Origin: Leptolyngbyales cyanobacterium
GTDB lineage: Bacteria > Cyanobacteriota > Cyanobacteriia > Leptolyngbyales > Leptolyngbyaceae
Direction: 5' to 3'
DNA length: 64,000 nucleotides
Assembly: GCA_038227635.1 (NCBI GenBank)
Contig: JBBRPT010000006.1
Coordinates: 1 to 64,000, forward strand
The translations under genes were made by a program, and so were the position numbers. Of the stretch, positions 9,598 to 57,772 are shown in pieces. The notes beneath the pieces were generated by a model. The model was not told the origin of the DNA and did no database searches. It saw only the letters and a list, made by a program, of their open reading frames with translations. Numbering within the stretch: position 1 is the first letter of the stretch; each line of letters begins with the position of its first letter.

Positions 9598-9620
9598 AGA
9601 AAAAATGCAGCAATGCCTGA

Positions 9621-9911: not shown

Positions 9912-10242
9912 GATTGATCGGGTCTTGATAACCGGATTTTTGAGGCAGATTTTTAGACGATCGCCAAATCCACCAGCCCGCGATCGCTAACGTGCAATTT
10001 CCCACGACCGTCATCGCGGCTTGCACAGTCACGACCCACTCTAACGAGACGGGATTGTCGAAAAAATGCCAGGTGCAGGCACACATCGCGCTAACCAACG
10101 CAGGCAACATTCCCAGTGAGAGCGATCGCCATGCCAAATTTCCACTGACTTCGGCATAGCGCCAAATCAGCCAGATTGCCGCAATCCATTCAATGACGCT
10201 AGAAACATGAATCACCCAGGTCGGGATTGATAGAACGTGCAT
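9904..10242 (-). CDS. DUF2499 (Ycf49-like) membrane protein
   Basis: 112 aa with N-terminus MHVLSIPTWVIHVSSVIEWIAAIWLIWRYAE and 3-4 TM helices. Confidence 0.55.
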   Translation of the reverse strand: MHVLSIPTWVIHVSSVIEWIAAIWLIWRYAEVSGNLAWRSLSLGMLPALVSAMCACTWHFFDNPVSLEWVVTVQAAMTVVGNCTLAIAGWWIWRSSKNLPQKSGYQDPINHD

Positions 10243-31284: not shown

Positions 31285-31561
31285 CCTTCTAAACAGGCAC
31301 TTTTTCTGTATCGACGTTGGAAAAATAGCAGATGATAGATTCTGAGTAGAGTTGAATTTGTATCGACCTTGTCTATGTGCCTGATATTCTGACTGATTTT
31401 GACATTGAGTTGATGCTCTACCTTAGTGTGGCAATTCAGTATCAAACCGGTTCATCTGAAGCTTAGCGCTCGTGTTTACCCCAGAGGTCTTCTTACTTTT
31501 TCAGTTGACTCATTCAACTTGATCCTTCACCTAATCTCTCGTGTCAGGAGTTTTTTCATCC

Positions 31562-33301: not shown

Positions 33302-33373
33302 CTCAGCCTTGAGATTGGGTATCCAGCCAGCTATATTTTGTCCTTTTGCCTACAGACGACAGACTCCGAATTT

Positions 33374-36437: not shown

Positions 36438-36539
36438 CGATCGGTCATGGCACAATCGTTGGAGACGTTCTACCGAAACGTCTCTACGGGGTTGGGTAAA
36501 TTCAATGTCGATTAATTGGTACTGCTGAACCATCGATCT

Positions 36540-41912: not shown

Positions 41913-42668
41913 CTAAAAAGCGTTGGACACAACCGATTGTTCAACCTTCGATACCAACCGCAGCAAATTTTCCCCTAGAACTAGGGTTTCTTTTACCGGA
42001 GATAATCCAAGCAATCGAATTTTTTGGAGTTCAAGGGCAGGATGTAACCAAGGACCATCAGTGCCAAACAATACTTTGTGAGCACCTCCTCTTTGGACTG
42101 CTTGTGCTAAGTAATCAAACCGACGTACACCGGATGTATCGGTATAAACATTAGGAAAGCGAACAATTTGATCAATTACACGGATATGAGCCGTCCAGTC
42201 GTCTGCAAAGCTTCCTAAGTGAGGAATAATAAAGTTCACGTCAGGATATTGAGCTGCCAGCAAATCAATAATTTCAGTCTTGCCAGCGGGGTCATAAAGC
42301 AGCGGTAACCGAAACCTTTGAGCAACCTCGCAAAGTTCACGAGTGGCGGGGGCATCCAGTCGATGGGCTTTGATTCCGCAAAATCCCCATTGAATTACGG
42401 CTTGTTTAACGATCGTATGAACCCGTCCGCGATCGCGCTGAGCATGAACAAAGGCAAATCCCAAAAAACGCCCTGGATATCTGGCAATAATCCGAGCGGT
42501 ATTGGCATTCGCCTGAGCGTAATCGCTATGAAACGGAGCAAAGATCACAGTTTTATAAATGCCCACCGCTTGTGCCCGTTTCAAATACGTTGCGATCGGT
42601 GCATCGGTATCCCAAGGACCGGTTAACAAGTCGCCTTTTCCAGCATGGCAATGGCAATCGATAATCAT
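41913..42668 (-). CDS. amidohydrolase-2 (TIM-barrel metal-dependent hydrolase) family protein
   Basis: The N-terminus is MIIDCHCHAGKG (HxH metal motif); later IIPHLG and FGTDGPW are present. It is ATGA-coupled to the upstream M20 gene. Confidence 0.75.
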   Translation of the reverse strand: MIIDCHCHAGKGDLLTGPWDTDAPIATYLKRAQAVGIYKTVIFAPFHSDYAQANANTARIIARYPGRFLGFAFVHAQRDRGRVHTIVKQAVIQWGFCGIKAHRLDAPATRELCEVAQRFRLPLLYDPAGKTEIIDLLAAQYPDVNFIIPHLGSFADDWTAHIRVIDQIVRFPNVYTDTSGVRRFDYLAQAVQRGGAHKVLFGTDGPWLHPALELQKIRLLGLSPVKETLVLGENLLRLVSKVEQSVVSNAF

Positions 42669-44074
42669 TGTGTATACTCCGCAAAGAAGCGAATTACAGT
42701 CTCAATACCGTGAAAGAAGTTCGGTAAACTCATCTTTTCGTTGGGAGCGTGAATATCATCATCCGGTAATCCGAATCCCAGCAGCACGATCGGCACTTGC
42801 AGCCGTCGATGGAGGTGTTCGACTAGGGGAATTGAGCCGCCGCTGCGAGTGAACACAGGGGGAATGCCCCAAGTTTGCTCAACCGCTCGAATGGCAGCCT
42901 GCATCACTGCACTCTTTTGAGGCAACAAAACCGGACGCGATCTGCCCGTAATTTTTAAGCGGCTACGGATTGCGGGATGACTCAAGGATTTCAGATGGTG
43001 TTCCAGCAGTTGGGCAATTTCGGTGGGTTCTTGATCCGGAACCAGTCGCAGACTCAATCGAGCAATTCCTCGACTGGGAATGACCGATTTCGCACCTGCG
43101 CCTGTGTAACCACCCGCTAATCCATTAATCGTCAAGGCTGGGCGACTGGTCATGCGCTCAAACAAGTCGTAGCCAGGTTCACCCCAGCCCAAGGGCACAT
43201 CAAGGTCAGCTAAGATTTGCTGGTTGCGTTTACAGGCGCAGCGAAGTTGTTGTCGTTCTGTTGGTTGGAGGTCTCGAACCTGCTGATAGAAACCAGGAAT
43301 CGCCACTTTTCCGGTGCGATCGTGCAGTCCTGCAATCATTTCGCTCAAGGCTTGCAGGGGATTCAGCACGGCTCCTCCATATCGCCCAGAGTGCAGATCG
43401 TGCTTGGGTCCGCGCACTTCTAGTTCACAGTTGAGATTGCCGCGCAGTCCATAGATGATTGAGGGTCTGCCGCGTCCTAGCATCTCGGTGTCAGAGACCA
43501 AGACCGCATTAGCTTGAAGTCGTTGCACTTGTCGATCGAGAAACGCAGCTAAGTTCGGACTATTGATTTCCTCTTCCCCTTCTAGCCACACTTTGACATT
43601 GATCGGCAAGGTTCCAGTTGTTCGCAAGTAGCTCTCGATCGCTTTTAAGTGGATAAATAACTGTCCTTTGTCGTCGCTGGCTCCACGAGCAAACAAGCTG
43701 TCTCCCACTATGGTCGCTTTGAACGGATGCGATCGCCATTCATCGATTGGATCAACAAGCTGTACATCATAATGCCCATATAGCAATAACGTTGGCTTTC
43801 CGGTTGCCATTAACCAATCTGCATAGACACTGGGTGCGCCGCCATTCACGCTTGGAATCACTTGAACACGATGCAGACCAATTTCTGCTAAGTGTTGCGC
43901 TAACCACTGGGCACAGGCTTTGATGTCTTTTCGGTGCTGAGGAAGTGCAGAAATAGTAGGGAAAGCGATCAGTTCAGACAGTTGGGAGAGCCAGCGCGAT
44001 CGCATTTCTGGTTGCTGGCTGTAGAGCAGGGGTGCAATTGCTGCTGGTGAAGAGACAAGCATCGCTTTCGCCAA
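42665..44074 (-). CDS. M20-family metallopeptidase (dipeptidase / ArgE-DapE-CPG2 type)
   Basis: Contains LLLYGHYDVQ, GASDDKGQ and WLEGEEEINS, plus a dimerisation-domain-sized insert. Confidence 0.85.
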   Translation of the reverse strand: MAKAMLVSSPAAIAPLLYSQQPEMRSRWLSQLSELIAFPTISALPQHRKDIKACAQWLAQHLAEIGLHRVQVIPSVNGGAPSVYADWLMATGKPTLLLYGHYDVQLVDPIDEWRSHPFKATIVGDSLFARGASDDKGQLFIHLKAIESYLRTTGTLPINVKVWLEGEEEINSPNLAAFLDRQVQRLQANAVLVSDTEMLGRGRPSIIYGLRGNLNCELEVRGPKHDLHSGRYGGAVLNPLQALSEMIAGLHDRTGKVAIPGFYQQVRDLQPTERQQLRCACKRNQQILADLDVPLGWGEPGYDLFERMTSRPALTINGLAGGYTGAGAKSVIPSRGIARLSLRLVPDQEPTEIAQLLEHHLKSLSHPAIRSRLKITGRSRPVLLPQKSAVMQAAIRAVEQTWGIPPVFTRSGGSIPLVEHLHRRLQVPIVLLGFGLPDDDIHAPNEKMSLPNFFHGIETVIRFFAEYTQ

Positions 44075-44137
44075 GAGTTAACTTTACTGTGAACAATCAC
44101 TGTTATGTCAATCGTCTACTCGGAATTGTCGAGATCA

Positions 44138-45265
44138 TTAAAGAGGTCGATCTAGATTTGGATAGTCTCGATCAAGGTTCCAATCGCACTGACCCCGGTA
44201 ACAACCTGTGCCAACAGCGATTAGCATCCGCCGGTGCTGTCGTTCCTCTTTCAGCTTGTTCCCCGCCCGATTTGCAGCTTCATTGGCGATCGCAATTAAC
44301 TTCTCCTGCTCAGAGGACAATCCTCGGATTCGAGCCATAAACGCCTGCTCTTTTTTACGACCCAAACCATCGCCTGTATGAACATCAAAGATCATCGACA
44401 GCCCCCGAATCGTTCGTAATCCGAGTCGTCGAGTGATGGCTACGCAGGTTGTGATTCTGCCGCTCACGTCTTCTATTTGCAGACGACAGTAATCTGGATC
44501 GGAACACAGGCGAAGTAAGGTACTACTCCAGCGAAAACAAAGCTTTTCAGCACTTGCTTGTCGCACTGCATCCCTAGGTGGCAAAGCAATCAGGTTCTTC
44601 AACTTCTCGGTATCTGCTCCGAAGAACTCTCGTAACCGCCCAGTTTGACGCTCAAATTTTGTGAGCATTGCTTGTAGAGTCCCAGCCGCTAGATTCCACT
44701 GAATCATGCCCATCGAGATGCCATCGACCTCAGACACCCGACACCCAAACTCTCTGTTGTTTTCAAACCGAGTGGTAATTCTCAAAGCAATCAACTCAGC
44801 TTCGCTTAGTTTCGTTGGAGGCAGACACGCTACTTGCCCACCAACATTACAACTCCGTTTACGCTTGCGGGAGCGCTCTGCAATAAAATTGGCAGCATCT
44901 CTCACTTGTCCAGTTCTCTGTAAGTCACCCACCGGAGGCGGCAAAACCCTTGTGATAACAACTTTACGAGCGTAATCAATCCGAGGTATATTCACCATTG
45001 ACAAGAATGGAGTACGATTTGTCCACAAAGCATCGAGTGTTTGAGGTGCTAAACCATCGAGCACACGCAGCATTTCGTACATATTCAAGCCATTCAAGTT
45101 GAGATAAGCACTTCTCCAATCACTGACTCGTACAGCACTCTCAAAAGCTCGACGAACTGAGCTAGGTGTATATTCAAACTCTAGTAGTTTCCATTCTGCT
45201 TCTAATGGTTGATCGCGATATCTAACTGAAACGGGTTCAAATAGCCATTGTGTGGTTCGACTCAT
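44138..45265 (-). CDS. cluster protein H: N-terminal FE-x-P/EWK tag + GH46/lysozyme-like domain (tentative)
   Basis: The ATG at 45265 gives MSRTTQWLFEPVSVRYRDQPLEAEWKLLEFEY. Mid-protein, RFENNREFGCRVSEVDGISMGMIQWNLAAGTL resembles the GH46 chitosanase/lysozyme-fold catalytic segment (FEN...DG..G). No signal peptide. Confidence 0.35.
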   Translation of the reverse strand: MSRTTQWLFEPVSVRYRDQPLEAEWKLLEFEYTPSSVRRAFESAVRVSDWRSAYLNLNGLNMYEMLRVLDGLAPQTLDALWTNRTPFLSMVNIPRIDYARKVVITRVLPPPVGDLQRTGQVRDAANFIAERSRKRKRSCNVGGQVACLPPTKLSEAELIALRITTRFENNREFGCRVSEVDGISMGMIQWNLAAGTLQAMLTKFERQTGRLREFFGADTEKLKNLIALPPRDAVRQASAEKLCFRWSSTLLRLCSDPDYCRLQIEDVSGRITTCVAITRRLGLRTIRGLSMIFDVHTGDGLGRKKEQAFMARIRGLSSEQEKLIAIANEAANRAGNKLKEERQHRRMLIAVGTGCYRGQCDWNLDRDYPNLDRPL

Positions 45266-45293
45266 GGTTTTATTAGCTCGAAAATAGAATAAT

Positions 45294-46178
45294 TCACAGC
45301 GATCTAGAAGCAATGATCGTGAATAAGGCATTAAAGAGCCTGTTCAAAGTGTCGCGGTTCTTGAGAGATTGTTCTGTTAAATCGCCCCCCTTTGCCCGGC
45401 GAGCGAACTCTAACAGAAAGCGCCGAGTGACTTGATCGAACTCGCCAGTTTCTGAAATGCTTGCTCCTAATAGACTGTTCAGCGATTCTTGAACAAAGAC
45501 TAGTGTTGATTTTTGCAGCGGATTTCGAGGTCGTCCCCGATTCATGTCACAGTGAAAATGATCGCGGTGATCGGAGCGGTGATAGTCGATCACAGTAGTA
45601 AAAGAGAGCCTGAGACAGGCATTCATGCGGCGCAAGATTGCTCTTTCTGCCGGATTGCGGAAGTTATGAACGATCGTTTCTCGATTGGAGCTAGAAGAGA
45701 TGCCCGATTGTTGCCAGCGCAGCCCAGCAATGTCGATCGCATCGCCAAAAGAATGATTGCTCAATGTGTCTGTGTTACTGATACATCGACATAGATAAGA
45801 GCCGAGGGTTAGAATCGCTTCGATCGGTAAGCCAAATTGAGTCATATTGTTAACAAAGGTACTCAACGCTGTTTCAACTGATGGAATAAACCGCTGCGTT
45901 CTAGGGCGCAATCGCTTGCTTACCACAATCAAGGGTGTGCTTGGATCTTTCCGAACTGCATCTACATACTCAAAAGGGATACCATTTACGGCTTGGACAC
46001 ACAGCAAATTTGGAATAGCTGGACAAACTTTAGGCGTTTTACAGCGTAGCTTTGTTGTGCTGGCAGCTTCAGAACAAGTGCGACGGGCTGAAGTCGGAAC
46101 TAGCTCCCATTCAGTTTCGCCAAGCCACCCATCGGTTCGAGTCGGTATTTCAAACTGCAAAGGATTTTGCTGCCTCAT
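45294..46178 (-). CDS. cluster protein G: N-terminal tag + LAS-superfamily (extensin-like-C / M15-like) zinc hydrolase domain
   Basis: The ATG at 46178 is ATGA-coupled to F and gives MRQQNPLQFEIPTRTDGWLGETEWELVPTS. The later signature is SYLCRC...LSNHSFGDAIDIAG...VIDYHRSDHRDHFHCD, i.e. the H..G.A.D ... H.DHFH.D pattern. No signal peptide. Confidence 0.55.
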   Translation of the reverse strand: MRQQNPLQFEIPTRTDGWLGETEWELVPTSARRTCSEAASTTKLRCKTPKVCPAIPNLLCVQAVNGIPFEYVDAVRKDPSTPLIVVSKRLRPRTQRFIPSVETALSTFVNNMTQFGLPIEAILTLGSYLCRCISNTDTLSNHSFGDAIDIAGLRWQQSGISSSSNRETIVHNFRNPAERAILRRMNACLRLSFTTVIDYHRSDHRDHFHCDMNRGRPRNPLQKSTLVFVQESLNSLLGASISETGEFDQVTRRFLLEFARRAKGGDLTEQSLKNRDTLNRLFNALFTIIASRSL

Positions 46179-47125
46179 CGGGTCACCTCTGTTGAGTTCT
46201 TCAGAAATGGAGTCGCTTTGATACGGGTTTCCCAATAAGTAATCGGGACTCTGTTGTGATCGCCTGTTGTTGATCGATTTACCGAGACGTTAGAGAGTTT
46301 TTGCCGCTTTGCATATATTTGTAAACTGGTTGCCAGAGGTGCAGTTTGACTGTTGGCAATGTAGTAAATGAAGAGATTACTGGTGGGATTCCGCTTTGCC
46401 CAACTTCCCCAGCCCGTATCATCTCCAGTGTTATACGTACAATCAAATCCCCAGCATTCACGGATTTTGCTTGCATAAGTAGCTTTAGAAAGCGCGATCG
46501 TTCTCATCGGTAAACCGCCCCCTGAATGACAGGCAAGAATCAGATTACCAAGGCTGAGCGGTTGATCAAACTGCATGGAAGGCGCGTAATACGTCCGAAT
46601 TGCTGCTAACACCTGATCAATGTAAGCATCGAAGCCACTGGCTTGAGTGAGATTGCCGGATTCCGATCGCGACCCTAAAGTTGGAGCGACGAGAATAGCA
46701 TTTTTACTGCTGGCATTGACTCCTTCTCGAAATGCAAAGAACGGATAGAACTGTCGATTCCAATATTGGTCGATCGTCAAGTTCGTTGGATAGTAGCCAG
46801 GAGCCGGAGATCGACCGCGCTGAACTGGAGTGCGATGATGACCCTGGAGGTAGAGAATCAGATCGACCTGAGGTGTAAACCGATAGTTAGCAGGCAGAAA
46901 AACCCCGGTCATGGGTTGCGGACAGACTTTAGTGCGATCGCGCTTTGTGCTACATCCAAGATTGATGTTGAGATAGAGAGTTGAGAAGAGGGGTTGAGAT
47001 TCTGACCGAATCAAGGATGGAGCAGCTTGAGTCGGAGATTCAAATAGCCCATTCTGCTCAAAGTTTAGATAAGAAGTCGGGCTGCGTGAAGGAGCCTCGA
47101 ACATCCACTGAGTTGAACGATTCAT
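46175..47125 (-). CDS. cluster protein F: N-terminal tag + alpha/beta-hydrolase-like domain (tentative Ser hydrolase)
   Basis: Starts MNRSTQWMFEAPSRSPTSYLNFEQNGLFESP. A nucleophile-elbow-like LILACHSGGG is present, with later D/H candidates (GDDTGW, TGDHNRVP). No signal peptide. Confidence 0.35.
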   Translation of the reverse strand: MNRSTQWMFEAPSRSPTSYLNFEQNGLFESPTQAAPSLIRSESQPLFSTLYLNINLGCSTKRDRTKVCPQPMTGVFLPANYRFTPQVDLILYLQGHHRTPVQRGRSPAPGYYPTNLTIDQYWNRQFYPFFAFREGVNASSKNAILVAPTLGSRSESGNLTQASGFDAYIDQVLAAIRTYYAPSMQFDQPLSLGNLILACHSGGGLPMRTIALSKATYASKIRECWGFDCTYNTGDDTGWGSWAKRNPTSNLFIYYIANSQTAPLATSLQIYAKRQKLSNVSVNRSTTGDHNRVPITYWETRIKATPFLKNSTEVTR

Positions 47126-47154
47126 ACAGTACTCCTAGCGAGGATAGATGAGTT

Positions 47155-48311
47155 CTATCTCATGACATTTGGGGCAGGCATCATCCCGTTCGATCGTGCA
47201 AATACCGGATCGGGTCGTGTTCCACGAGGAGGAGGACCTGGCTGGTAAATATTGCGCGGGGGTGGAGTGGGACGGCTGATCCGCATTCCTTCTTCGCTGG
47301 AGATCCATTCTTCAGAGTATTCGGCGATGCGGTAGAGCAACGCTTCAAAGTCAGTGCGGTTCTTCTTGAGGACGAAGGGTTCGGCTAACCAACGGATGAT
47401 TTCTCGTCCAGCAACCGCCATCCGGTTCATCGTACTGGCGTGAACGGATTGACCAAAGTATTGCCACAAAACTAGTTCAATCATTTCCCAGGCATTAGCA
47501 GCCCCAAACTGGGCGCGAACATCGGGAGCATCTAGAACCTTAAAGGCTTCCGCTAATGCTTGACTGGTTTCTACCCGCAGCACATTGATATAGCCGTAAG
47601 AAGAGTTCTTCAAGTTGTTGCGTAAATCGAGTCCGGTTCGACGGACGATCGCCATGGAACCAAAGGTCGGATCAGTGGCATTTTGGCGAATCACTTCGCT
47701 AATTCGTTTGTCGCGCCAGAACTTTGCGGTTTCGCTGATAAAGTGAGTGAAAAGTCCATGAAACTCTGGATTGGCACGAGCGCCCGGTCCCGGATCGCGC
47801 CCATAGCCTAAGACCCGCGTATAGGCCCGACGGCGATCGCCCTGTTGGTAGCGCAAAAGGTTGTGCTTATCAAAGCGGTAGAGTCCGTAAGCCCCTTCGC
47901 CGCTGGAAATTCGCAAGGTTCCGGCTCGGAATAGCTCTTGCAACTTGTGCATCACTTTAAACACACCCAAAAATTCATGGATAGCGATGTAGTAGAGGTC
48001 GCCTGCCGCAAGGATGCGATCGCTGGTCACCGTATCGTCGTAATCCACAATGCCGCTGGAAACCTGGGTTGCTCCTAAATTGGTGGGTGCCGTGTTGCCT
48101 AACCCGATCAGGTCGGCTAGTCCCCCATCCGGCGGAACGCCTTTGCCATTTGGGCTTCATCAAATTTGCGAACCTGATCATCCACCGTTCGGTTCAGCAC
48201 TTCTGCCAATTGAGGATTGGCAACCAACTCTGGACCCAGTTGTTCAATGGTGTTTTGCAGGAGCGCAGCAATACGATCGTTGCGCTGGTCGTAATCTCTG
48301 GTGTTCGGCAT
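47155..48311 (-). CDS. cluster protein E, unknown function; apparently split by a frameshift at a C5 run (48122..48126)
   Basis: A 64-aa ORF (48311..48117, good RBS AGGAATAGGAAC) and a 297-aa ORF (48048..47155, GTG start) sit in adjacent frames. The downstream frame is already open from ~48150. Adding one G/C in the 5-mer run fuses them into a protein of about 385 aa. Confidence 0.55.
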
Positions 48312-48424
48312 ACGTTTGTTCCTATTCCTGATCTAAATATCTCTGAGTGCTGCTGAGGGAAGGGCATCGCGATCGCCAACCGGATCACCATGCGAAGCCT
48401 TAATTGTTTCGGTTCACGATTGCT

Positions 48425-49954
48425 CTAACTCTCCCCAGGTGGACTAGTCGGGGGAACCGTGCTACCCACTCCCAGATCTGCCAGTGTATCGAGTTGGAAG
48501 AGCAACTCACTCAAGGTTTGCTGCACCCGCTCAAAAGACAGCACTCTGTCTAGCAGTAAGCCCTTGGAGGGGTCGCTTTTAAGGGTGGACAAGACAATCC
48601 CAATCACCCAGAACAAGGTATCTGCCTGGTCGGTGACAAAATCTAAGCCAAACTGACCTGAAGCGGACAAGATAGATGGCGCTTCCAGGGTGGCAAACCG
48701 CTCAACCCACTCGTTGAAATCATTGACGGTGATGTCCGGTAGCAGCAAGCTAAACGTGGTGGGACTGGAGAACAACGACAGGCTGATGTCGATCGCGTTG
48801 GGAGAGTTGATCGCGTTGGAAGGGTTAGGTCTCGTCCGAGGAGATCCTAAGATCGAGAACAGTGCGGTATCCGATCGCCGCTCGCTGGCAGTAAATCCGA
48901 TCGAATCCATTGCCGCCATCAGGCTAGTATTGCTATCTGAAATCACGGGCAACATGATGTAAGACCGCGACAGCCGCTCACTATAGCGCCCTGTTACGTT
49001 TGTCTCCACGTCATTGGTTACAGCGAACTGCTCAAAAATTGTTCTTAATGTACCTGCATAGTTTTTCAGTAACTCAAAGCCTGCAACTTGTGTTTCGTCT
49101 GACAGTGTGACTGGGAAAACCTCTGTGCCGTTTCTTTGCCCTCGGAATCCACCCCGATCGACCAACCGTGCTTGTTCGCCCAATTGAATAATCGAACCAT
49201 CTAGCGTGTTGAGATACGTTTCCACCCGTTCTCGACGGGGTTCATCAATGCGTCCAAATTCATCAACTAAAGTGTTGATTTGCGATCGAATCAACGCCCG
49301 TAATGCTTCCACCGCATCAATATCCGCTATGGGATCAAAGGGTTGCAGTGCCTCCAAAACCCGCAGGGCATCTGCCGCAATAATGCTTGTCTGACGATAG
49401 AGATTTGCCTGTTCCACAGACAACTGACCCACGCCACTGCTATTCGGTGGTGCTGACCTGTAACCGGCGGCTGCATCATTGCCGAGACTGTCAGGTGAAT
49501 AGTAGCCGTTGCCCACGGTGGAGTAATTGCCGCTTCCGTTCAGGGAAACGATACTGCGAGTGGGCGTCATCATCACTTTGCCATGAGCATCCGTTGGGAA
49601 AGCACTGTTCAAGGCATTAACAAATCCATCATATCCGCGTCCCGGTGTTCGCCCTAAAACCTGAGTCAGCGCCCGTTCTACCTGCTGAGTTAAGGCATTT
49701 GCGTTTCCACTGGCACTAGAGCGAGAGGAGCCATTGTCGTAGATGGTCGGTTCATTGCCTGCCGATCGTCCTAAGATTTGGGCAATTTGAGCCAACTGCT
49801 TGGGAATGGCTTCTGTAAGCTGTGGCTGTAAAAAAAGGCTGTTCAGGAGAACCTGACGCATTTCTTGCAATTGGTCTCTTTGTCGTAGATTCTGAAGCTG
49901 CCCATCGTTGAGCACCTCACCGTTGATCAGCGTTCCGAAAACTGGAAAAGCCAT
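48425..49954 (-). CDS. cluster protein D, unknown function
   Basis: 509 aa. No TM helix, signal peptide or catalytic motif recognised. A G/S/N/Y-rich low-complexity segment spans about residues 70-175. Confidence 0.7.
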   Translation of the reverse strand: MAFPVFGTLINGEVLNDGQLQNLRQRDQLQEMRQVLLNSLFLQPQLTEAIPKQLAQIAQILGRSAGNEPTIYDNGSSRSSASGNANALTQQVERALTQVLGRTPGRGYDGFVNALNSAFPTDAHGKVMMTPTRSIVSLNGSGNYSTVGNGYYSPDSLGNDAAAGYRSAPPNSSGVGQLSVEQANLYRQTSIIAADALRVLEALQPFDPIADIDAVEALRALIRSQINTLVDEFGRIDEPRRERVETYLNTLDGSIIQLGEQARLVDRGGFRGQRNGTEVFPVTLSDETQVAGFELLKNYAGTLRTIFEQFAVTNDVETNVTGRYSERLSRSYIMLPVISDSNTSLMAAMDSIGFTASERRSDTALFSILGSPRTRPNPSNAINSPNAIDISLSLFSSPTTFSLLLPDITVNDFNEWVERFATLEAPSILSASGQFGLDFVTDQADTLFWVIGIVLSTLKSDPSKGLLLDRVLSFERVQQTLSELLFQLDTLADLGVGSTVPPTSPPGES

Positions 49955-49993
49955 TGTTACTAACCTCTGCTGATGTATAGAGTCATCGTTCTG

Positions 49994-51364
49994 TTACCGC
50001 CTGCCGAGAATGCGGTAGAAATTATCGGTAATGGTTTGAGGAGTGGCAAGTTGGCGATCGAGGGCAAACCTCGCCGCACTGATCATAAAACGGACGGGAA
50101 TGGTACCGGGATCTTGTCCGGCGGCAAGTCGCTGTCCTGCCAATTCCACCATCGCCATTTGCTGAGGTCCGAAGGGGATTGCCTGGGCCAGAGACTTGTT
50201 GCCAAACTGACGATACGGTTGAAAAACCATCGTATCTACGACCATTTCGGCAGCCGGATAAAAGGTTTTCATGAAATCAGGGGGAATGTCGTTGGGCGTG
50301 ACTCTGGGATAGAGCCGTTGCCAGATCCGCGTCAGATCCGCCGCCATTTTGTCAAACCCCATGCGGCGCAGCAAAATCAGGTTGATCAGCGTTCGCAGAT
50401 AGGGCGTGGGATGGACGGACATGCCGCTAAATTGAACCGTGCTGGCGGGCGATCGCCCCACCACATCCATCAACGATTCCACCGCAGCCGGACCACCCAA
50501 AACCAGAGCAAACATATCTGCCATGGTTTCTTTGTGCCAGCGTGCCCAGACCTGGGCGACCTGGGCAGGAAATTTACCTTCGGTGGTCAGGCGTTGATAG
50601 AGGCGGGCAGGGATTTCTTCCCACAATCCCAAATCTGCCTGAAGATTATGCGACACCTCATGCAGAATGCTAGAGAGTGCCCAGACATTATCTAATCGAT
50701 GTTGCGGCAACATGATCAGCGGAAACGGATTGGGATTGCGTCGCAGACGCATAATCGGCACCCCCCGACGAAAGGTTGCCGGACTAAAGCCACTGTTGGC
50801 ATAGCTAAACGGCAGCAAACTGGGCGTGGGTTGAGCCGTTCCCAGACCTACGTAGAGGTCTTCATAGCAATTGGCACAGATGCGATCGACCGATCGTAAG
50901 CGTTCGCCAAAATTAGAGAGCCGCTGGATGAATAAATCGAAGTAAAAATCCCAAATGCCTTCGACATAAAGCACCTGGCTGCCCACCTTCTGCTTGCGCT
51001 CTAACAACACTTGCAGGCGGCTGGTGGTGGGTTCTCGGCGGGCAGCGGCAGCGGCAGCTTCCACCCAGCGAGACATTTCGACTAATTGACTGCGGAATTG
51101 GTCAATGAATCGATTCACCGCTTCAATATGTGCCTCGCTTGGAGCCGCCACCCCGCTGCCAAACTCATCATTACGAAAAGGACGCAGCGATTTGGCATGG
51201 CGGGTAAGGTTAATCGACTGAATATTCAGCCAGTTATCCAGCAGGAGCCGTTCACTGGCGGTGGTTGCTCCTTTCATCACCGTTGCAGTCGCTTGCGCTG
51301 GGGCAGCAACTTTAGAATCTGAAGGCGAGTGTTGAGGCGGGGCAGAAGAGTTTGCCATGATCAC
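49994..51364 (-). CDS. cluster protein C: putative gluzincin-type metallopeptidase (HExxH)
   Basis: 456 aa with SSILHEVSHNLQADLG and a downstream WHKETMADMFALVLGG (candidate third-ligand Glu). GTG at 51364 and ATG at 51358 are both possible starts. Confidence 0.5.
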   Translation of the reverse strand: MIMANSSAPPQHSPSDSKVAAPAQATATVMKGATTASERLLLDNWLNIQSINLTRHAKSLRPFRNDEFGSGVAAPSEAHIEAVNRFIDQFRSQLVEMSRWVEAAAAAARREPTTSRLQVLLERKQKVGSQVLYVEGIWDFYFDLFIQRLSNFGERLRSVDRICANCYEDLYVGLGTAQPTPSLLPFSYANSGFSPATFRRGVPIMRLRRNPNPFPLIMLPQHRLDNVWALSSILHEVSHNLQADLGLWEEIPARLYQRLTTEGKFPAQVAQVWARWHKETMADMFALVLGGPAAVESLMDVVGRSPASTVQFSGMSVHPTPYLRTLINLILLRRMGFDKMAADLTRIWQRLYPRVTPNDIPPDFMKTFYPAAEMVVDTMVFQPYRQFGNKSLAQAIPFGPQQMAMVELAGQRLAAGQDPGTIPVRFMISAARFALDRQLATPQTITDNFYRILGRR

Positions 51365-51422
51365 GGCTTCCTGGGGGTCAAAGATTCGTGGCGTTTAGAA
51401 CGCATAGAACGCAGAACAGGGG

Positions 51423-52583
51423 TTAGCGACCTGCCGCAGCACGGCGGCTGGCACACGCCGGACACTGACCATTTCTAGTGGCGGTGGCACGGCGGGGGTT
51501 GGGAGGTGCCGTGCGTTGACGCAGAACGGCATTCCGCACGATCGCCCGTTGCACCAGTTGGGGATTGCTCAACACACGCTGGCTAGCGGCTGCCATTGCC
51601 TTGACTGCCAGAGGACCTGTGATCGGCTGACCGGATTTAGAAGCCGCTTTCAGCGTGGCGATCGTCCGTCGTTGAATGGTGGGTACGGTTCGCAGCAGTT
51701 GCCGCCCGATCGGACCTTGTTGGCGTAACGTCTTCACAAGTTGACTATTTGCCTGTGCCAAAATTGGCATCACCGGACGCAGTGCCCGTCGTCCGCCCAT
51801 AATCGTAATCGTGATCGGCAAGGCTGCGCCCAGGGTAGATTCTGCTTCGGCTTCGGTAGCGGCTTCTGCCGATTGCGCTGCTAGAAATTCGGTCAGTGCC
51901 GCTTCATGGGCGACTTCTGTATTTCCAACTTCGGCTTCCGATTCATTGGTGCCAAAGAATTCTGACTCCATCTGTCCCGCTTCCATTTCCCCTTCTTGAA
52001 CCAGGGCACTGGTGAGTTTGGCGGCAAGGGGTCCTGCGATCGGACCAATGCCCGGAATCAAGGCAGCGAGTTTACCCGCTACGATCGGAGCAAATCGCTT
52101 TGCTAGAGGAGCCGCTACTTTTGCAATCTTACCAATGCCTCGTTTGACCGCACGAAACGCTTTCTTGAAGAAATACTCACCCTCATCTTCGGGATTGGAG
52201 TAAGGATTACTGTAGTGGGCTGCTTCGTGGCTGGTTTCCCATTCATCCTCAAACTCAGGATTGGAGTAAGGATTGGAGTAAGGATTGCTGTAGTGGGCTG
52301 CTTCGTGGCTGGTTTCCCATTCATCCTCAAGCTCAGGATTGCTGTAGTGGGCTGCTTCGTGGCTGGTTTCCCATTCATCCTCAAGCTCAGGATTGCTGTA
52401 AGGATTGCTGTAATGGGCAGCTTCATGGCTGGTTTCCCATTCATCCTCAAACTCAGGATTGCTGTAGTGGGCAGCTTCGTTTTCCCATTCATCCTCAAAC
52501 TCAGGATTGCTGTAAGGATTGCTGTAATGAGCTGCTTCATGGGAAGCAGGAGCCTCAAACATTGCTTGATGTTGCGTTACCAT
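51423..52583 (-). CDS. cluster protein B: charge-segregated repeat protein
   Basis: 386 aa. MFEAP is followed by six tandem cassettes HEAAHYSNP(YSNP)n-E(F/L)EDEWETS. Next comes the cationic segment FFKKAFRAVKRGIGKIAKVAAPLAKRFAPIVAGKLAALIPGIGPIAGPLAAKL, then an acidic block (EGEMEAGQMESEFFG...EAEAES), then an Arg-rich C-terminus. Confidence 0.8.
   Translation of the reverse strand: MVTQHQAMFEAPASHEAAHYSNPYSNPEFEDEWENEAAHYSNPEFEDEWETSHEAAHYSNPYSNPELEDEWETSHEAAHYSNPELEDEWETSHEAAHYSNPYSNPYSNPEFEDEWETSHEAAHYSNPYSNPEDEGEYFFKKAFRAVKRGIGKIAKVAAPLAKRFAPIVAGKLAALIPGIGPIAGPLAAKLTSALVQEGEMEAGQMESEFFGTNESEAEVGNTEVAHEAALTEFLAAQSAEAATEAEAESTLGAALPITITIMGGRRALRPVMPILAQANSQLVKTLRQQGPIGRQLLRTVPTIQRRTIATLKAASKSGQPITGPLAVKAMAAASQRVLSNPQLVQRAIVRNAVLRQRTAPPNPRRATATRNGQCPACASRRAAAGR
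52180..52545. repeat. in-gene tandem DNA repeat (variable 51-75-bp units) encoding the HYSNP..EWE cassettes
   Basis: GTAGTGGGCTGCTTCGTGGCTGGTTTCCCATTCATCCTCAA(A/G)CTCAGGATT recurs six times, with a variable number of GGAGTAAGGATT/GCTGTAAGGATT sub-units. Confidence 0.9.
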
Positions 52584-52664
52584 TCGTAAAACTCTCCTTG
52601 TGAATTAGGGTGGGAGTACGTGTCAAGGGTTGAACCCCGATCGGGGCATTCCTGCTGCTTCAGG

Positions 52665-53555
52665 TCAAGCGGCAGCAACGGCTCGTTGTCGGATCACCGC
52701 GTTGCGAATCATTGCCTGCCTGACCATTTGGGCGTTCCCAAAAACGCGGGCAGCATGAGCCGCTATGACTCGTCGAACCAGCGTTGCCGTGATCGAACGA
52801 CCCAATCGCGGTGCCGCTCGTAAACTTGCGATCGTTCGCCGTAGAATCGTGGGAATCAGTCGGAGTAAGCGTCGCCCTGCCGTACCGCGTCGATGCAGTA
52901 AATGGACTAAATGGGCAGTTGCGGCAATCAACACAGGCATCAGCGATCGCAGCCGTCGTCTGCCCCCCGCACTCCGCACTGCGATCGGAACCACCGTGCC
53001 AATTAAAGCCGATGCTTCACTGGGATTGCGACTGTGGCTCGCTTCTGCCGCCAATACCTCGGTCAAAGCAGCTTCTTGAGCGGCTTCTGAATCACTCGCT
53101 TCGGCTTCTGCTGCATAAAGACCAAAGAATTCTGCTTCCAGATACTCTGTTTCCAGATCACCTTCTTGAAGCAAAATGCTGATGAATCTGCGCGCCATCG
53201 GAGTTGAAACTAACCCCGATCGAGGAGTCGCTCCAAGCAGCGTTCGGGCGACGATCGGAGCTAGATGTTGGGCAAACGGTGCAGTTACTCTCGCAACTTG
53301 CCGAATGCCTTGAAGGGCTTGTCTAAAGGAAAACTCTGCTTCCCACTCACTTGCCATTTCGGTATGAGGGTAATGCGAAGCTTCCTGGGTTTCCCATTCG
53401 TATTCGTCCCCCCGATAGGAGTAAGGTCGAGAATCGTGAGTTGTTCTGAACATCTCCCATTCATCGGGTCGTTGCGGATGAGAATAGTGAGTTGCTTCAA
53501 ACAGGTTATTGCTATTACCTAGTCCTTTTCCATTAGTATTCGCGTATCCACTCAT
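52665..53555 (-). CDS. cluster protein A: diverged paralogue of B
   Basis: 296 aa. LFEATHYSHPQRPDEWEMF, YRGDEYEWETQ and SHYPHTEMASEWEAEF correspond to the cassettes of B. It is then colinear with B: APFAQHLAPIVA vs APLAKRFAPIVA; LLQEGDLETEYLEAEFFG vs LVQEGEMEAGQMESEFFG; EAALTEVLAAE vs EAALTEFLAAQ; and the Arg-rich tail ..MIRNAVIRQR vs ..IVRNAVLRQR. Confidence 0.8.
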   Translation of the reverse strand: MSGYANTNGKGLGNSNNLFEATHYSHPQRPDEWEMFRTTHDSRPYSYRGDEYEWETQEASHYPHTEMASEWEAEFSFRQALQGIRQVARVTAPFAQHLAPIVARTLLGATPRSGLVSTPMARRFISILLQEGDLETEYLEAEFFGLYAAEAEASDSEAAQEAALTEVLAAEASHSRNPSEASALIGTVVPIAVRSAGGRRRLRSLMPVLIAATAHLVHLLHRRGTAGRRLLRLIPTILRRTIASLRAAPRLGRSITATLVRRVIAAHAARVFGNAQMVRQAMIRNAVIRQRAVAAA

Positions 53556-53719
53556 TAGAGTGTTCTCCCAGCATAGGCGGTTGAACTAATATGACGTTCG
53601 TCTTATATATAACAGGTGTCACTTCTAGAGTTACAGTCCCTTTCTCAAGGGTCGCTAATGGTTGGTAGCACAAACGAGCGTCACTCATTTAGGGGGCTTG
53701 GTCTAACTCAACCCCTCCA

Positions 53720-54298
53720 TGCCATTGCATTCGGATCGAGCACGGGCGGCATCCCAGTCCCTCTGAAGCAGTGCTCGATAGTCAAAGTGTGAAAAGTGCT
53801 GCCGGGGTTCAGGATGCGGTGGGTTTTAATGGGGCAAGGTGATCAAAGGACGCAAGCGATTTGCCACCGTCGATACTTTAGGCTTGGTCTTGCGCGTGTT
53901 GGTAACAGCCGCCCGTGCTGGGGAATGCGAAGGCAGCAAACAAGTGCTCCAATGAGTCCAGCAACGGGGCAAAGCGGGGTCTCGCCTACATACGATTTGG
54001 GTAGACGGCGGCTTTGACGGCAGTCCCTTCATGCAGTGGGTCATCACGGTCTGTCGGTGGATGGTGCAGGTAGTGCTGCAACCAGAGCAGACTAAAGGGT
54101 TCGTCTTGCTCAAAAAGCGCTGGGTCGTTGAGCGCACAGCCCTGGAGGCGGGTTTCCCTCCGTAGGAGACTGTGTAGAGCGGACTTTTAGTTGATGCACT
54201 GTCGTCGCTTGGTGCACGACTACGAATTGCTGCTAGAAACGTCTGAGACGTTGATCTATCTGGCAATGATTCGGATTATGGTTCGGCGCTTGGCGTAA
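53720..54298 (+). pseudogene. IS5-family DDE transposase remnant (5'-truncated, frameshifts and stops)
   Basis: Across three frames it reads ..PSPSEAVLDSQSVKSAAGVQDAVGFNGA / KVIKGRKRFATVDTLGLVLRVLVTAA...RLHTIWVDGGFDG...KKRWVVERT / VHDYELLLETSETLIYLAMIRIMVRRLA*. The track ORF 53826..54266 (-) is antisense to it. Confidence 0.75.
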
Positions 54299-54754
54299 AT
54301 TTTGACCGCTCTATACTTTAAAGCCCCCTCTAACCCAATGGGGCGATTTTCTTTCAGTACCAAGTTTCCCAGTATATACTTAATTAGCGTTGCTCTAAGC
54401 AATCGGTAGCCCGGTTGAAAAATCACACTTTAATCTCTCAGGACTTAACGTCAGAGCGTTGCTGAGCGATGCTATGGATTCGCCCCTCAACCCTATTCTG
54501 GAGGACTTCTGGACTTTCAAAGTTCCCCAGAATGGGGGATTTATAGGGCTTCCAAGAGTGCGGCGACTCAACAACTCATATCTGCATCCAGCAACGCCAA
54601 CGTCAGTTCAAACTGTTACTGTTCATTTCAAAATACTCGAAAGGTCTATCAGTATTTGCATTACCCATCGCGCTGCTCGCTTCATTAAAGTCTTTACGGT
54701 TCTCTTCTAACTCGCTCTCGAAGCATCGCGTTCTAGCTGCTTAAGGAGATACAA

Positions 54755-55168
54755 ATGGATGCTAATAATGACGAAAATCTGAGTTCAGATCCTCAAAATT
54801 TTCTGTCTTTAGACCAAGAAATTTTGCTGAACTGTTTAGTGAAAAAGGTTTCTCAAGCTGAACCTTTGAAACGTCTTCAAGCGGCTGAAGAAACGGTTAA
54901 CGAAATCATAATCGAATCTGACATTGATGGAACGCATTATTATCTTGTTCGGTGTACACCAAAGTCTGCTCTCCAAGTTAATTTGAGTCCGCGTGAGTTT
55001 GCGATCGCTCGCCTAGTTGCTCAAGGGTTTCCAAACAAATGTGTTGGTAATCAGCTCAACATTAGCCCTTGGACTGTTGCGACTCATGTCCGTCGTATTT
55101 TTGCTAAGCTAAGCGTCAATTCAAGGACGGCAATGGTATCAAAGCTGATGGAAGCAGGTTTGTTGTAG
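54755..55168 (+). CDS. LuxR/GerE-type HTH transcriptional regulator (no receiver domain)
   Basis: 137 aa. The C-terminus is LSPREFAIARLVAQGFPNKCVGNQLNISPWTVATHVRRIFAKLSV. The gene ends 5 nt before IR-R. Confidence 0.8.
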   Translation: MDANNDENLSSDPQNFLSLDQEILLNCLVKKVSQAEPLKRLQAAEETVNEIIIESDIDGTHYYLVRCTPKSALQVNLSPREFAIARLVAQGFPNKCVGNQLNISPWTVATHVRRIFAKLSVNSRTAMVSKLMEAGLL

Positions 55169-55172
55169 AAAC

Positions 55173-55266
55173 GAAAGTGTCAGAATTAAAGCTTGGCTAT
55201 TGGGCGAAATTCACTGTCTCTGATAGTCTAGGGACTCACCTAAAACTGAATCCCCATCCCGCTTTG
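55173..55266 (+). repeat. right copy of the 94-bp inverted repeat (IR-R)
   Basis: GAAAGTGTCAGAATTAAAGCTTGGCTATTGGGCGAAATTCACTGTCTCTGATAGTCTAGGGACTCACCTAAAACTGAATCCCCATCCCGCTTTG. It lies 105 nt upstream of the recombinase start. Confidence 0.85.
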
Positions 55267-55361
55267 ATGAACTGTCTCCATTGTAATTCATCGCTCACCA
55301 CTCAACTGAAACGCACCACCAGTCTCAGCCATAGCGGTTCTCAGTCTAGTCATCGATTTAG

Positions 55362-55908
<547 letters not shown>

Positions 55909-56120
55909 CGCCCGCTTTCGCCCACTCAACTTCAAACCCCTTCATCTGAGGACACCTAAACGCCTTATAGGGAAATCTTTTTGGGCGAAACCGTAACTTT
56001 CTGTTCAAATGCGCCCGCTAGTCCAAATTGAGCCTCCCCACCCTATCATTTTTGCGACAGAACCCTATACCTTAGGGTTGTGCAAAGAACCCCTTTCTCG
56101 CGCAAATCTTCGAGAACCCA

Positions 56121-57358: not shown

Positions 57359-57772
57359 CTAAACTTTTGGAGTGGACAAATCTGTCTGAGGAGGTGATTC
57401 TAACCCTTTGAGTCTGGGAGTGCGTCCATAGAGGCGATCGAGCACCCGTTTGATCGAGATGCGCTGCCATTGCTGTCCACGCTTGGTGCTGTAGCCCTGC
57501 CGATTTAGCCAGTCTGCCACTTGCTGAAGCGACTTGCCTGACTTGTGATGACGGCGGATTAAATCAATGATCTGCTGCTCGGTGGGGTCTTCGATTAGTT
57601 CACCGTCGAGCGATCGCTGCCCAAACGCAGGTGAGCCATAGCCGACATAGCCTCCCTGAGCCGCTTTCTCTTTGCGCCCTTGCTCTAATCGTTCCCACAC
57701 CTCACGATCTTGAAAATTTTCGCCCATGTGTTTGTGCTGTAGGTCACCTGACTCTAAGCATATCTCTACCAA
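57359..57772 (-). pseudogene. fragment of a serine-recombinase 'Recombinase' domain protein (catalytic domain missing)
   Basis: GGYVGYGSPAFGQR...DPTEQQIIDLIRRHHKSGKSLQQVADWLNRQGYSTKRGQQWQRISIKRVL matches the DNA-binding Recombinase domain pattern. There is no resolvase N-domain, and it abuts the next gene. Confidence 0.55.

Follow-up and report, generated by a model that had tools for sequence, protein, structure and literature searches.

Lysis-dependent release of toxins is known from the colicin lysis proteins and from the type 10 secretion of Tc toxins, and N-terminal markers on unrelated effectors are the rule for the cargo of type VI secretion systems (T6SS) and of extracellular contractile injection systems (eCIS). 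A scaffold and cargo logic with multivalent motifs is known in carboxysomes and encapsulins, and protease-activated pore-formers are the known logic of bacterial gasdermin systems. Holin-dependent export has also been covered (PMC9527704). In bacteriophage T4, the first ten residues of IPIII, MKTYQEFIAE, act as a capsid targeting sequence (CTS) to the scaffold core (bioRxiv 10.1101/2021.01.19.427310); residues 4 and 7 of this tag serve targeting and residues 8 and 10 serve processing, the prohead protease cuts after Glu10, and related giant-phage propeptides have multiple Glu sites (PMC9026906). The subject of this text is a gene cluster that recalls each of these systems in part, in which short acidic-aromatic tags mark otherwise unrelated proteins beside a predicted zinc protease. 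It lies in a stretch of 64,000 nucleotides (hereafter the window) from a Leptolyngbyales cyanobacterium (GenBank assembly GCA_038227635.1, contig JBBRPT010000006.1, positions 1 to 64,000 of the forward strand). The cluster spans at least four or five bacterial phyla and matches no described system; this second point had already been made in an earlier note on this DNA, written from the letters alone, and has held up in all the family, structure and literature searches run.

The cluster comprises ten co-directional minus-strand open reading frames (ORFs; 41913-53555), named A to H and followed by genes for an M20 dipeptidase and an Amidohydro_2 metal hydrolase (Amid), together with a small LuxR/GerE-type regulator that is divergently oriented on the plus strand (54755-55168; GerE Pfam 2.5e-16). 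The intergenic gaps from A to Amid measure 28-113 nt, with 4-nt overlaps between F and G (ATGA, 46175-46178) and between M20 and Amid; M20 starts 63 nt beyond the end of H on the same strand, and C and D are 39 nt apart. The minus-strand ORFs, coordinates and spacing listed in the earlier note were all borne out when the ORFs were re-checked, and each of its quoted peptide motifs was found in the window translations; its "nine genes" do form a tight co-directional operon, but A to H counts eight. Because the M20, Amid and GerE genes recur syntenically, the functional unit extends over 41913-55168, with B, C, (X), D, E, M20, Amid and GerE as core members, where X denotes a helical ORF found between C and D in other genomes and absent from the window. 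That this multi-phylum module with its conserved core is real can be regarded as nearly certain.

When genomes were scanned with one genome per species, 14 loci were obtained, from Leptolyngbyales, Phormidesmis, Elainella, Stenomitos, Alkalinema, Nostoc, Chroococcidiopsidaceae and one member of the Ktedonobacteraceae. In all 14 the genes run (A)/B - C - D - E - variable genes; Amid follows the variable genes wherever the sequence is long enough, usually with M20 just before it. Identity to the window orthologues is 69-89% for C, 76-92% for E, 53-86% for B and 41-67% for D, and the Ktedonobacteraceae copy shares 72% (C) and 78% (E) with the window, which indicates horizontal spread together with strong constraint. 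The metagenome scan, made with intermediate relatives, gave 456 confirmed relatives, from which 80 loci were kept (52-71% GC, mostly truncated contigs). All of the long contigs among them are arranged as GerE / B, B / C / ~600 bp / D (500-1060 aa) / E / 0-2 kb / M20 / Amid / GerE, and some of their E proteins are labelled by the sources as Terracidiphilus, Acidobacteriota or Dongiaceae, always as "hypothetical protein". The whole set is also present on the 2.38-Mb megaplasmid of Paraburkholderia sp. PGU19 (locus L102), where X has 176 aa (9448-9978) and the interval between E and M20 is empty, and on the chromosome of Nostoc sp. TCL26-01 (L103), where X has 220 aa (7754-8416) and two genes follow E. 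Neither X belongs to a family; in the soil loci L034-L100 a gap of ~600 bp lies at the X position, and L038, the one inspected, has no convincing ORF there.

About 100 loci, spread over Cyanobacteria, Ktedonobacteraceae, Acidobacteriota and Paraburkholderia, share the order B-B-C-(X)-D-E-(cargo)-M20-Amid-GerE, the cargo being the variable genes discussed below. The number of core B-type genes is one to three per locus; every one of the 14 genome loci has a B orthologue, as do 30 of the 80 metagenome loci, most of which are truncated. In 7 of the 14 genome loci the cluster has the GerE regulator at its flank, as it has in 33 of the 80 metagenome loci and in both L102 and L103, and the orthologue in L013 is 76% identical to that of the window and likewise divergent. 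A check that the earlier note had proposed, whether C, D and E are syntenic with A/B-type proteins and tagged hydrolases in other genomes, has therefore turned out positive. Its suggestion that the M20 and amidohydrolase genes belong to the unit gains strong support from their synteny in Cyanobacteria, Ktedonobacteraceae, Acidobacteriota-type soil contigs and Paraburkholderia.

C (49994-51364, minus strand, 456 aa) has a variable Pro/Ser/Ala-rich N-terminus followed by a strongly conserved body, with a mean column identity of 73% over the 14 loci. An HExxH motif with a downstream ExxxD is the gluzincin signature of thermolysin- and neprilysin-type enzymes. In C, the zinc-binding and catalytic motif would be HEVSH (50648-50662, minus strand), and ETMAD (50516-50530, minus strand), an ExxxD motif 40 residues past it, would supply the presumed third zinc ligand; H235, E236, H239, E279 and D283 are invariant in 14 of 14 orthologues. 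C is predicted on these motifs to be a gluzincin-type zinc metallopeptidase; Pfam and NCBIfam gave no match to it at E <= 1, and a PDB profile search returned no peptidase.

D (48425-49954, minus strand, 509 aa) is the least conserved core member, with a mean column identity of 48%, and evolves fastest (41-67% identity versus 72-92% for C and E at the same loci). Its AlphaFold2 (AF2) model, with a mean predicted local distance difference test (pLDDT) of 66.6, consists of helical bundles, disordered Ser/Gly/Asn-rich linkers and one beta-hairpin. The 261 D homologues detected are all annotated as "hypothetical" and are mostly cyanobacterial; some carry Big_1 or other Ig-like additions, sizes reach ~1060 aa, and some of the long soil homologues give weak matches to Ig-like repeats. 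E (47155-48311, minus strand, 385 aa when intact) is the most conserved member, with a mean column identity of 84%. It is all-alpha in its AF2 model (pLDDT 70.8, and 80-92 over residues 93-345) and comprises about 12 helices there; the N-terminal hairpin is of low confidence, and the tail is disordered and rich in Pro. Neither model has a specific PDB match, and judged by these models E and D appear to be new folds. HK97-like capsid roles, considered in view of lengths (509 and 385 aa) that resemble those of a portal and a major capsid protein, were dropped because both proteins model as all-alpha. The E family is large, with 699 cluster representatives in an exhaustive HMMER search and 3,174 proteins in a word-indexed search. 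When the PDB was searched by sequence and by profile with alignments of C, E, B, F and H, all matches stayed at chance level, and A, B, C, D, E, F and H have no match in Pfam, NCBIfam, PHROGs or PADLOC, apart from a single PHROG for the tail of H.

The earlier reading of E as an ORF of ~385 aa does not apply to the window sequence itself, in which E is broken into two ORFs that differ in frame, one of 64 aa (48117-48311) and one of 297 aa (47155-48048); the public NCBI record holds the 297-aa fragment (P0379). The split is due to an A-run with one base missing (48149-48151, minus strand), a single frame change according to tblastn with the L013 orthologue. Because an independent Logan assembly contains a 385-aa protein (P0499) that matches both halves without a difference and has the frame repaired, the break is probably an assembly or homopolymer error and not the mark of a pseudogene.

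B (51423-52583, minus strand, 386 aa) is a tagged repeat protein, and A (52665-53555, minus strand, 296 aa) is its paralogue, as had been proposed, with 44% identity in alignment. The N-terminal tag of B leads into an acidic YSNPEFEDEWE array; a cationic amphipathic helix follows, then a stretch that is rich in Gly and Pro and moderately hydrophobic, and another acidic helical region precedes the Arg-rich domain, which ends in CPxC. The array has a net charge of -32 over ~125 residues and the Arg-rich domain one of +20 over ~110 residues; the net charge per 40 residues (-8, -12, -12, +3/+2, -10, +8, +6, +6) bears out the charge segregation that was noticed at the outset. B proteins carry the tag motif once and the E-W/F-E motif three to eight times, in YSNPEFEDEWE units whose number varies among orthologues. 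In the DNA, the array is encoded by tandem repeats (52192-52527, minus strand; units of 54, 66 and 78 nt) that are near-perfect, the 54-nt units being 100% and the 78-nt units 97% identical, and the array has therefore been recently expanded or homogenised. Directly after it comes FFKKAFRAVKRGIGKIAK, with the cationic amphipathic helix (residues 137-160, FFKKAFRAVKRGIGKIAKVAAPLA; 52104-52175, minus strand), which is called from its helical hydrophobic moment; this is 0.83 for residues 138-155, and not one of 2000 shuffles attained that value. Conservation in the B family resides in the C-terminal 250 residues. A has a conserved basic C-terminal half besides NLFEAT and three EWE motifs, and A-type paralogues elsewhere have EMEFE at the position of NLFEAT. 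The G+C content of 50001-52000 is 0.554 versus ~0.49 for the whole window, and this slightly deviating composition of the C/B part is compatible with horizontal acquisition.

The tags of the window are all encoded on the minus strand and stand at the N-termini of B (MVTQHQAMFEAP, 52548-52583), F (MNRSTQWMFEAP, 47090-47125), G (MRQQNPLQFEIP, 46143-46178, then GETEWELVP) and H (MSRTTQWLFEPV, 45230-45265, then EAEWKLLEFEY); A has a tag-like motif, SNNLFEAT (53490-53513), with NLFEAT at residues 17-22. The corresponding short motifs near the N-terminus are TQWMFEAP in F, TQWLFEP in H, PLQFEIP in G, QAMFEAP in B and NLFEAT in A. The peptide has the form MKTQSQWLFEAP. Its commonest version, MKTQSQWLFE, has W7, L8 and E10, and the cyanobacterial and Ktedonobacteraceae consensus is M-[KN]-x-Q-x-Q-W-L-F-E-[AVTI]-P, with Glu usually at residue 10. 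In 13 loci, 24 ORFs that come directly after E carry the tag at residues ~4-12, and most cargo carries a second motif, E-W/F-E, 10-40 residues past it (GETEWELVP and EAEWKLLEFEY are examples). In a six-frame translation of the 64 kb, a strict regular expression for the tag found two matches only, at the N-termini of F and H; the variant QQLFEAP of L012 is missed by that expression. Within the interval from E to Amid/M20, L002 has two untagged ORFs (an H fragment of 105 aa and a gene of PG_binding_1 type with 468 aa), L011 has one (102 aa) and L014 has two (249 and 108 aa); other untagged ORFs lie beyond the cluster or are inserted into it (transposase-, PIN- and Uma2-type). Among the insertions are an HSDR_N-like gene and genes for Uma2-family endonucleases, of which Nostoc sp. 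TCL26-01 has three; they lie between the cargo and M20 (L103 14218-16093; L001 13836-14480) and split the Nostoc clusters, which retain M20, Amid and GerE.

In soil lineages, the tag of B and of the cargo is replaced by runs in which every other residue is Glu and the rest are F, W, Y or L (EFEFEGEGEFELE...), at either terminus: cargo N-termini are ELELELE, HFEFEFQ or EQEWEDELEFE, and some C-termini are HEFEYEI. The common denominator, as read from these sequences, is an acidic-aromatic linear motif, single or double on the enzymes and multivalent on B, and the tag quite likely defines the clients of the core. Full-text literature searches for the tag (QWLFE) or for such a cluster gave nothing relevant. 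A beta-clamp or TolB-box reading was set aside, as the consensus does not fit and the supporting context is absent. Export through Tat or Sec, or as a lipoprotein, was likewise dropped, since there is no h-region or lipobox. None of A-H, M20 and Amid reaches a 19-residue Kyte-Doolittle mean of 1.6 or has a signal-peptide-like or transmembrane (TM)-like segment, and hydropathy thus supports the claim that Sec/Tat signals, lipoboxes and TM helices are missing.

The tag resembles the T4 CTS at the level of a motif, by analogy and not by homology. Both are N-terminal peptides of ~10 residues on unrelated proteins, end in Glu and have aromatic or aliphatic residues at positions 7 and 8 (MKTYQEFIAE versus MKTQSQWLFE). 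The likeness extends to T4 gp21, in that a dedicated protease has beside it a strongly charged protein that resembles a scaffold and offers numerous potential Glu sites; unlike gp21, however, the protease of the cluster is a predicted HExxH zinc enzyme, and the cluster has no capsid, portal or other phage gene and no viral homologues.

The cargo of the window consists of F, G and H. G (45294-46178, minus strand, 294 aa), whose exact product is present in public collections, matches Pfam PF06904 (Extensin-like_C) at 4.3e-13 with 50.3 bits (cut-off 25.4) and Peptidase_M15_4 weakly, and it has the metal motif H..D...HxH (SNHSFGDAIDI, HRDHFHCD). By this match and motif, G is classed as a LAS/Extensin-like_C zinc peptidase, the only verified wall-hydrolase fold of A-H; of the three peptidoglycan hydrolase folds announced earlier, that of G stands, and F and H have no family match. 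F (46175-47125, minus strand, 316 aa) is alpha/beta-hydrolase-like: Ser201 (HSGGG), Asp228 (GFDC) and His290 (HNxVP) are invariant in five orthologues and are compatible with an alpha/beta-hydrolase triad. One orthologue has a weak Abhydrolase_6 match (0.019), F itself matches nothing in Pfam or the PDB, and in the Ktedonobacteraceae locus L017 F is fused to Peptidase_M23. H (44138-45265, minus strand, 375 aa counted from M23) has no fold assignment and most likely starts at M23 (45265), which places MSRTTQWLFE at the N-terminus. Its conserved core, ITTxFE...DG.S.G..QWN, is fused to a CHAP domain in L006, so that a wall-related role is plausible. The GH46/lysozyme-like character first attributed to H found no support in Pfam searches with H and two orthologous cores, in PDB sequence searches or in three-sequence profile searches; against PHROGs, the H tail gave one match, phrog_30036, to which no function is assigned.

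Over all loci, the domains of tagged cargo are Extensin-like_C (G of the window), CHAP, Amidase_2, AmpD-like, VanY, Peptidase_M23, SLT, PG_binding_1, OmpA-like, trypsin and Aspzincin-like HExxH, besides the F and H families; the cargo is lineage-specific and consists mostly of peptidoglycan hydrolases and binders. L007 has six different tagged genes in a row, five of them back to back, the exception being a gap of 477 nt at 6253-6730. The window gaps of 28-113 nt hold no immunity-sized small ORF between cargo genes, and with this packing in the window and among five of the six L007 genes, the cargo differs from polymorphic toxin systems in having no adjacent immunity genes. The cargo is also optional: E abuts M20 in L025, L034, L038 and L102. 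Because such cargo-less clusters exist, wall hydrolysis is not the core function, and the earlier placing of the hydrolases at the centre of the system needs revision, as they are absent from Paraburkholderia sp. PGU19 and several soil loci.

M20 (42665-44074, minus strand) matches the NCBIfam dipeptidase PRK08201 with 516 bits (cut-off 441) as well as Pfam Peptidase_M20 and M20_dimer, and Amid (41913-42668, minus strand, 251 aa) matches Amidohydro_2 in Pfam at 2.2e-17; both count as core members by these matches and by synteny. G, M20 and Amid are the only minus-strand products to which families could be assigned, and Pfam found no ATPase family in any cluster member.

The protein with the invariant zinc-protease motif adjoins proteins in which Glu-rich segments precede a cationic amphipathic helix, and for this reason proteolytic control is proposed. 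The favoured explanation, a protease-gated lytic module, is given as a whole a probability of roughly 35%. The acidic-aromatic tag would be a docking and processing signal that brings B and the cargo to C-D-E, and the long acidic array would neutralise the cationic regions of B. Upon induction via the LuxR-type regulator, C would remove the acidic segments, cutting after Glu, and the M20 dipeptidase and the amidohydrolase would clear the released acidic (Glu-X) peptides. The unmasked cationic amphipathic helix of B would permeabilise a membrane, a holin-like job done without a TM segment, and the co-assembled wall hydrolases would then reach the peptidoglycan and cause lysis. D would act as a variable targeting subunit. 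The preferred targets would be, in order, the producing cell, whose lysis frees the complex without a secretion apparatus, and then neighbouring cells. For the individual steps, the odds that C cleaves tags or acidic regions are about even, those that the output is envelope lysis fall slightly short of even, and release followed by an attack on neighbours is the more doubtful part.

The proposed activation of B by cleavage has parallels in antimicrobial-peptide precursors with anionic pro-pieces and in protease-activated bacterial gasdermins, in that a single polypeptide joins an acidic segment to a strongly amphipathic cationic one and the gene of a dedicated protease adjoins; unlike these, B has a large conserved Arg-rich C-terminal domain, and there is no sequence or fold relation. 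The resemblance to holin-endolysin systems and to lysis-dependent release is that cytoplasmic wall hydrolases without signals would need a membrane-active partner. In contrast to holins, the candidate for that partner, B, has no TM helix, is 300-390 aa long, charge-masked and encoded beside a protease, and the cluster has no spanin, lipoprotein lysis gene or phage context. A conflict system whose products reach the outside through lysis of the producer, like colicins and Tc toxins, is favoured because there is no export apparatus or immunity gene, the cargo is polymorphic, D varies fast and sometimes bears Ig-like domains, and the distribution is patchy and horizontal with mobile-element remnants. 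Either an antagonistic effector set or a controlled autolysis, two options of the earlier note, may apply; cell separation in filaments is disfavoured because of the patchy distribution over at least four or five phyla and the adjacent mobile-element remnants.

Several points weigh against the protease-gated lytic module. Synteny, tags, cargo domains, protease motifs and the amphipathic helix are observed, but docking, cleavage, membrane attack and the target are each proposals, the protease assignment of C is drawn from motifs, the roles suggested for M20 and Amid are weakly motivated, and the cargo-less clusters show that wall hydrolysis is not what the core is for. The Ig-like domains of D argue for an extracellular site, and only lysis would explain the export. 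Furthermore, the conservation of E (84%) better fits a self-assembling shell or filament than a simple adaptor, and the T4 resemblance, as a short-motif analogy, could be due to chance.

Nearly as likely as a released conflict system, and like it on the unlikely side, is a self-directed death module of the abortive-infection (Abi) or programmed-cell-death kind, in which D and E would sense phage or stress, C would unmask B and the hydrolases, and the producer alone would be killed. The cluster contains neither export machinery nor immunity genes, as such a module would lead one to expect; D evolves fast, in the manner of arms-race sensors, the cluster is patchily distributed through horizontal spread and adjoins mobile-element remnants, and some neighbours resemble genes of defence islands (PIN and AF2212-like in L002, HSDR_N and Uma2 in L001 and L103). 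A large protein adjoining the cluster in L102 has an N-terminus that we take to be typical of defence nucleoside triphosphatases. However, PADLOC matches none of B, C, D, E, F, G, H, M20, Amid and the distant E-like protein discussed below, up to six wall enzymes at one locus (L007) are typical of offensive arsenals and not of Abi effectors, the Ig-like, Big and PKD additions on D and E-like proteins suggest extracellular exposure, and the conserved dipeptidase and amidohydrolase have no obvious role. The conservation of E leads in another direction, since 84% mean column identity, and 78% between cyanobacteria and the Ktedonobacteraceae, is typical of self-assembling structural proteins. E, perhaps with D, might then form the shell or lattice of a phage-independent particle or condensate, with B as multivalent scaffold binding E through its repeats, the tagged enzymes co-packaged by way of that motif and C maturing the whole by stripping off scaffold and tags like a prohead protease. 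The motif copy numbers (three to eight on B, one or two on cargo) would suit this arrangement, as would the length, position and terminal Glu that the tag shares with the T4 CTS, and the E homologue P0126 (402 aa) bears the acidic-aromatic motif of B and cargo on its own tail, as EAEYEAEWEY, its C-terminus ending in KKRPKKQPKDRYYEAEYEAEWEY. The likeness to encapsulins and microcompartments (CsoS2) is of the same kind, namely a short terminal peptide on the cargo (the 24 tagged ORFs of 13 loci), a disordered multi-motif protein and one extremely conserved partner; yet there is no HK97 or bacterial microcompartment fold, the D and E models being all-alpha with no PDB match, and the cargo is lytic instead of metabolic. 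Packaging of wall hydrolases has no known physiological precedent, and we rate a particle of this sort as improbable. Its more specific form, a phage-unrelated all-alpha E/D particle that is released by lysis and delivers lysins and a membrane-active peptide to other bacteria, with the second operon described below as a sister device, is less probable again.

The shared N-terminal marker on otherwise unrelated proteins also recalls the MIX-type effectors of T6SS and the cargo of eCIS and Photorhabdus virulence cassettes, as do the polymorphic, wall-directed enzymes beside conserved non-enzymatic proteins and their turnover between lineages. The tagged proteins could accordingly be cargo of a contractile injection system, a T6SS or another machine encoded elsewhere, with C, D and E as loading adaptors or chaperones. 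In contrast to those systems, the marker is acidic-aromatic and repeated many times in B, and there are no cognate immunity genes, VgrG or PAAR; no sheath, tube, baseplate, spike or ATPase family was found in the operon or in the ~10 kb around it (window, L001, L002 and L103; whole genomes were not searched). Pfam scans and gap inspection likewise upheld the statement that sheath, tube, baseplate, secretion ATPase and holin- or immunity-sized genes are absent. Cargo-less clusters also speak against such a dependence, and since the core travels as a unit over at least four or five phyla, including on a megaplasmid, reliance on an unlinked machine is hard to reconcile with its distribution; we rate it as quite improbable. 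The near-perfect short tandem repeats of B, with their variable copy number, and the two peptidases and one hydrolase conserved alongside could instead point to a precursor of small ribosomal peptides with YSNPEFEDEWE cores, which C and M20 would process and D, E and Amid would modify or bind. This is very improbable: the conservation of B is highest in the 250-residue C-terminal half and not in the repeats, which drift to plain (E-F/L/G)n in soil lineages, full-size enzymes bear the same motif, and Pfam and NCBIfam show no radical SAM, ATP-grasp, P450 or YcaO modifying enzyme. As for a diverged prophage lysis cassette, a further option of the earlier note, the wall hydrolases without signal peptides do resemble endolysins (G here; Amidase_2, CHAP, VanY, SLT and M23 elsewhere), and recombinase fragments lie upstream. 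It was nevertheless rejected: a scan of 2.9 million viral contigs and a tblastn search of 50,697 phage records both found no relative of E, PHROGs gave the single uninformative match to the H tail, no holin- or spanin-like TM protein is encoded and no such ORF would fit the gaps of 28-113 nt, the flanks (window, L001, L002, L103) hold no phage structural genes, and the unit is chromosomal or on a megaplasmid and conserved across phyla.

E-like proteins also occur in a second type of operon. Distant E relatives (~30% identity) form the C-terminal halves of proteins of 550-950 aa, a few of which have Big_2 or PKD domains, and they are encoded in a strongly conserved operon of ~13 genes in Acidobacteria, in Gemmatimonadetes-type metagenome-assembled genomes and in a cyanobacterium (for example, L018 1119-17654, L019 1560-17967 and L020 983-17886). 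It starts with a sigma-54 activator, followed by a signal-less protein of 1,000-1,300 aa that combines Amidase_2 with a cysteine or serine peptidase (C92/C70/trypsin); then come four genes without assignment, a Peptidase_S8, the E-like protein and five further such genes, including a second E-like paralogue. Four paralogous proteins of this operon share an SPAFxxL...RxLAxxMVxV N-terminus. In hhalign comparisons, E is related to the products of genes 8 and 12 with probabilities of 99.4% and 95.7%, and the D, C and B profiles showed no relation to any family of the second operon. As only E is common to both, the E fold has been paired twice, independently, with signal-less wall hydrolases and a protease. 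The second operon is itself entirely uncharacterised.

If the protease-gated lytic module is correct, the cluster would represent a previously unrecognised way to control and deploy lytic proteins without a known secretion system, by means of a transplantable tag and a dedicated protease; if the particle reading is true, it would join the tailocins/eCIS and the Tc toxins as a third class of proteinaceous delivery device. With more than 3,000 E homologues and about 100 loci of the same order in Cyanobacteria, Chloroflexota, Acidobacteriota and Proteobacteria, the system is ecologically common in soils and mats, and despite this abundance its members are annotated as "hypothetical protein". The tag could serve to load arbitrary proteins, and the cargo sets amount to a lysin library naturally paired with a membrane- or outer-membrane-active partner. 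Cultured carriers are Paraburkholderia sp. PGU19, Nostoc sp. TCL26-01, Phormidesmis priestleyi BC1401 and Elainella saxicola E1.

Rfam and promoter/terminator scans over 41-57 kb of the window yielded nothing informative. According to Pfam, the flanks encode kdpABD, a glycosyltransferase and a CBS protein; the kdp operon for potassium transport comprises KdpA (31541-33301), a P-type ATPase like KdpB (33338-35470) and, at 36516-37667, a KdpD sensor-domain/Usp protein, and it is an ordinary chromosomal context with no link to the cluster. Around the GerE gene, ~2 kb (53556-54754 and 55169-56120) hold no convincing ORF. This region contains a resolvase helix-turn-helix fragment (55771-55908; HTH_7, 6e-9), a resolvase-like N-terminal fragment (55371-55556) and a peptide (54031-54165, ...GFVLLKKRWVVERT...) that we take to be like the C-terminus of an IS5-type transposase, to which Pfam gave no match. 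Further upstream of the cluster lies a truncated serine-recombinase-type Recombinase ORF of 137 aa (57359-57772, minus strand; Pfam 4.7e-7), and these resolvase, transposase and recombinase fragments suggest decayed mobile elements beside the cluster.

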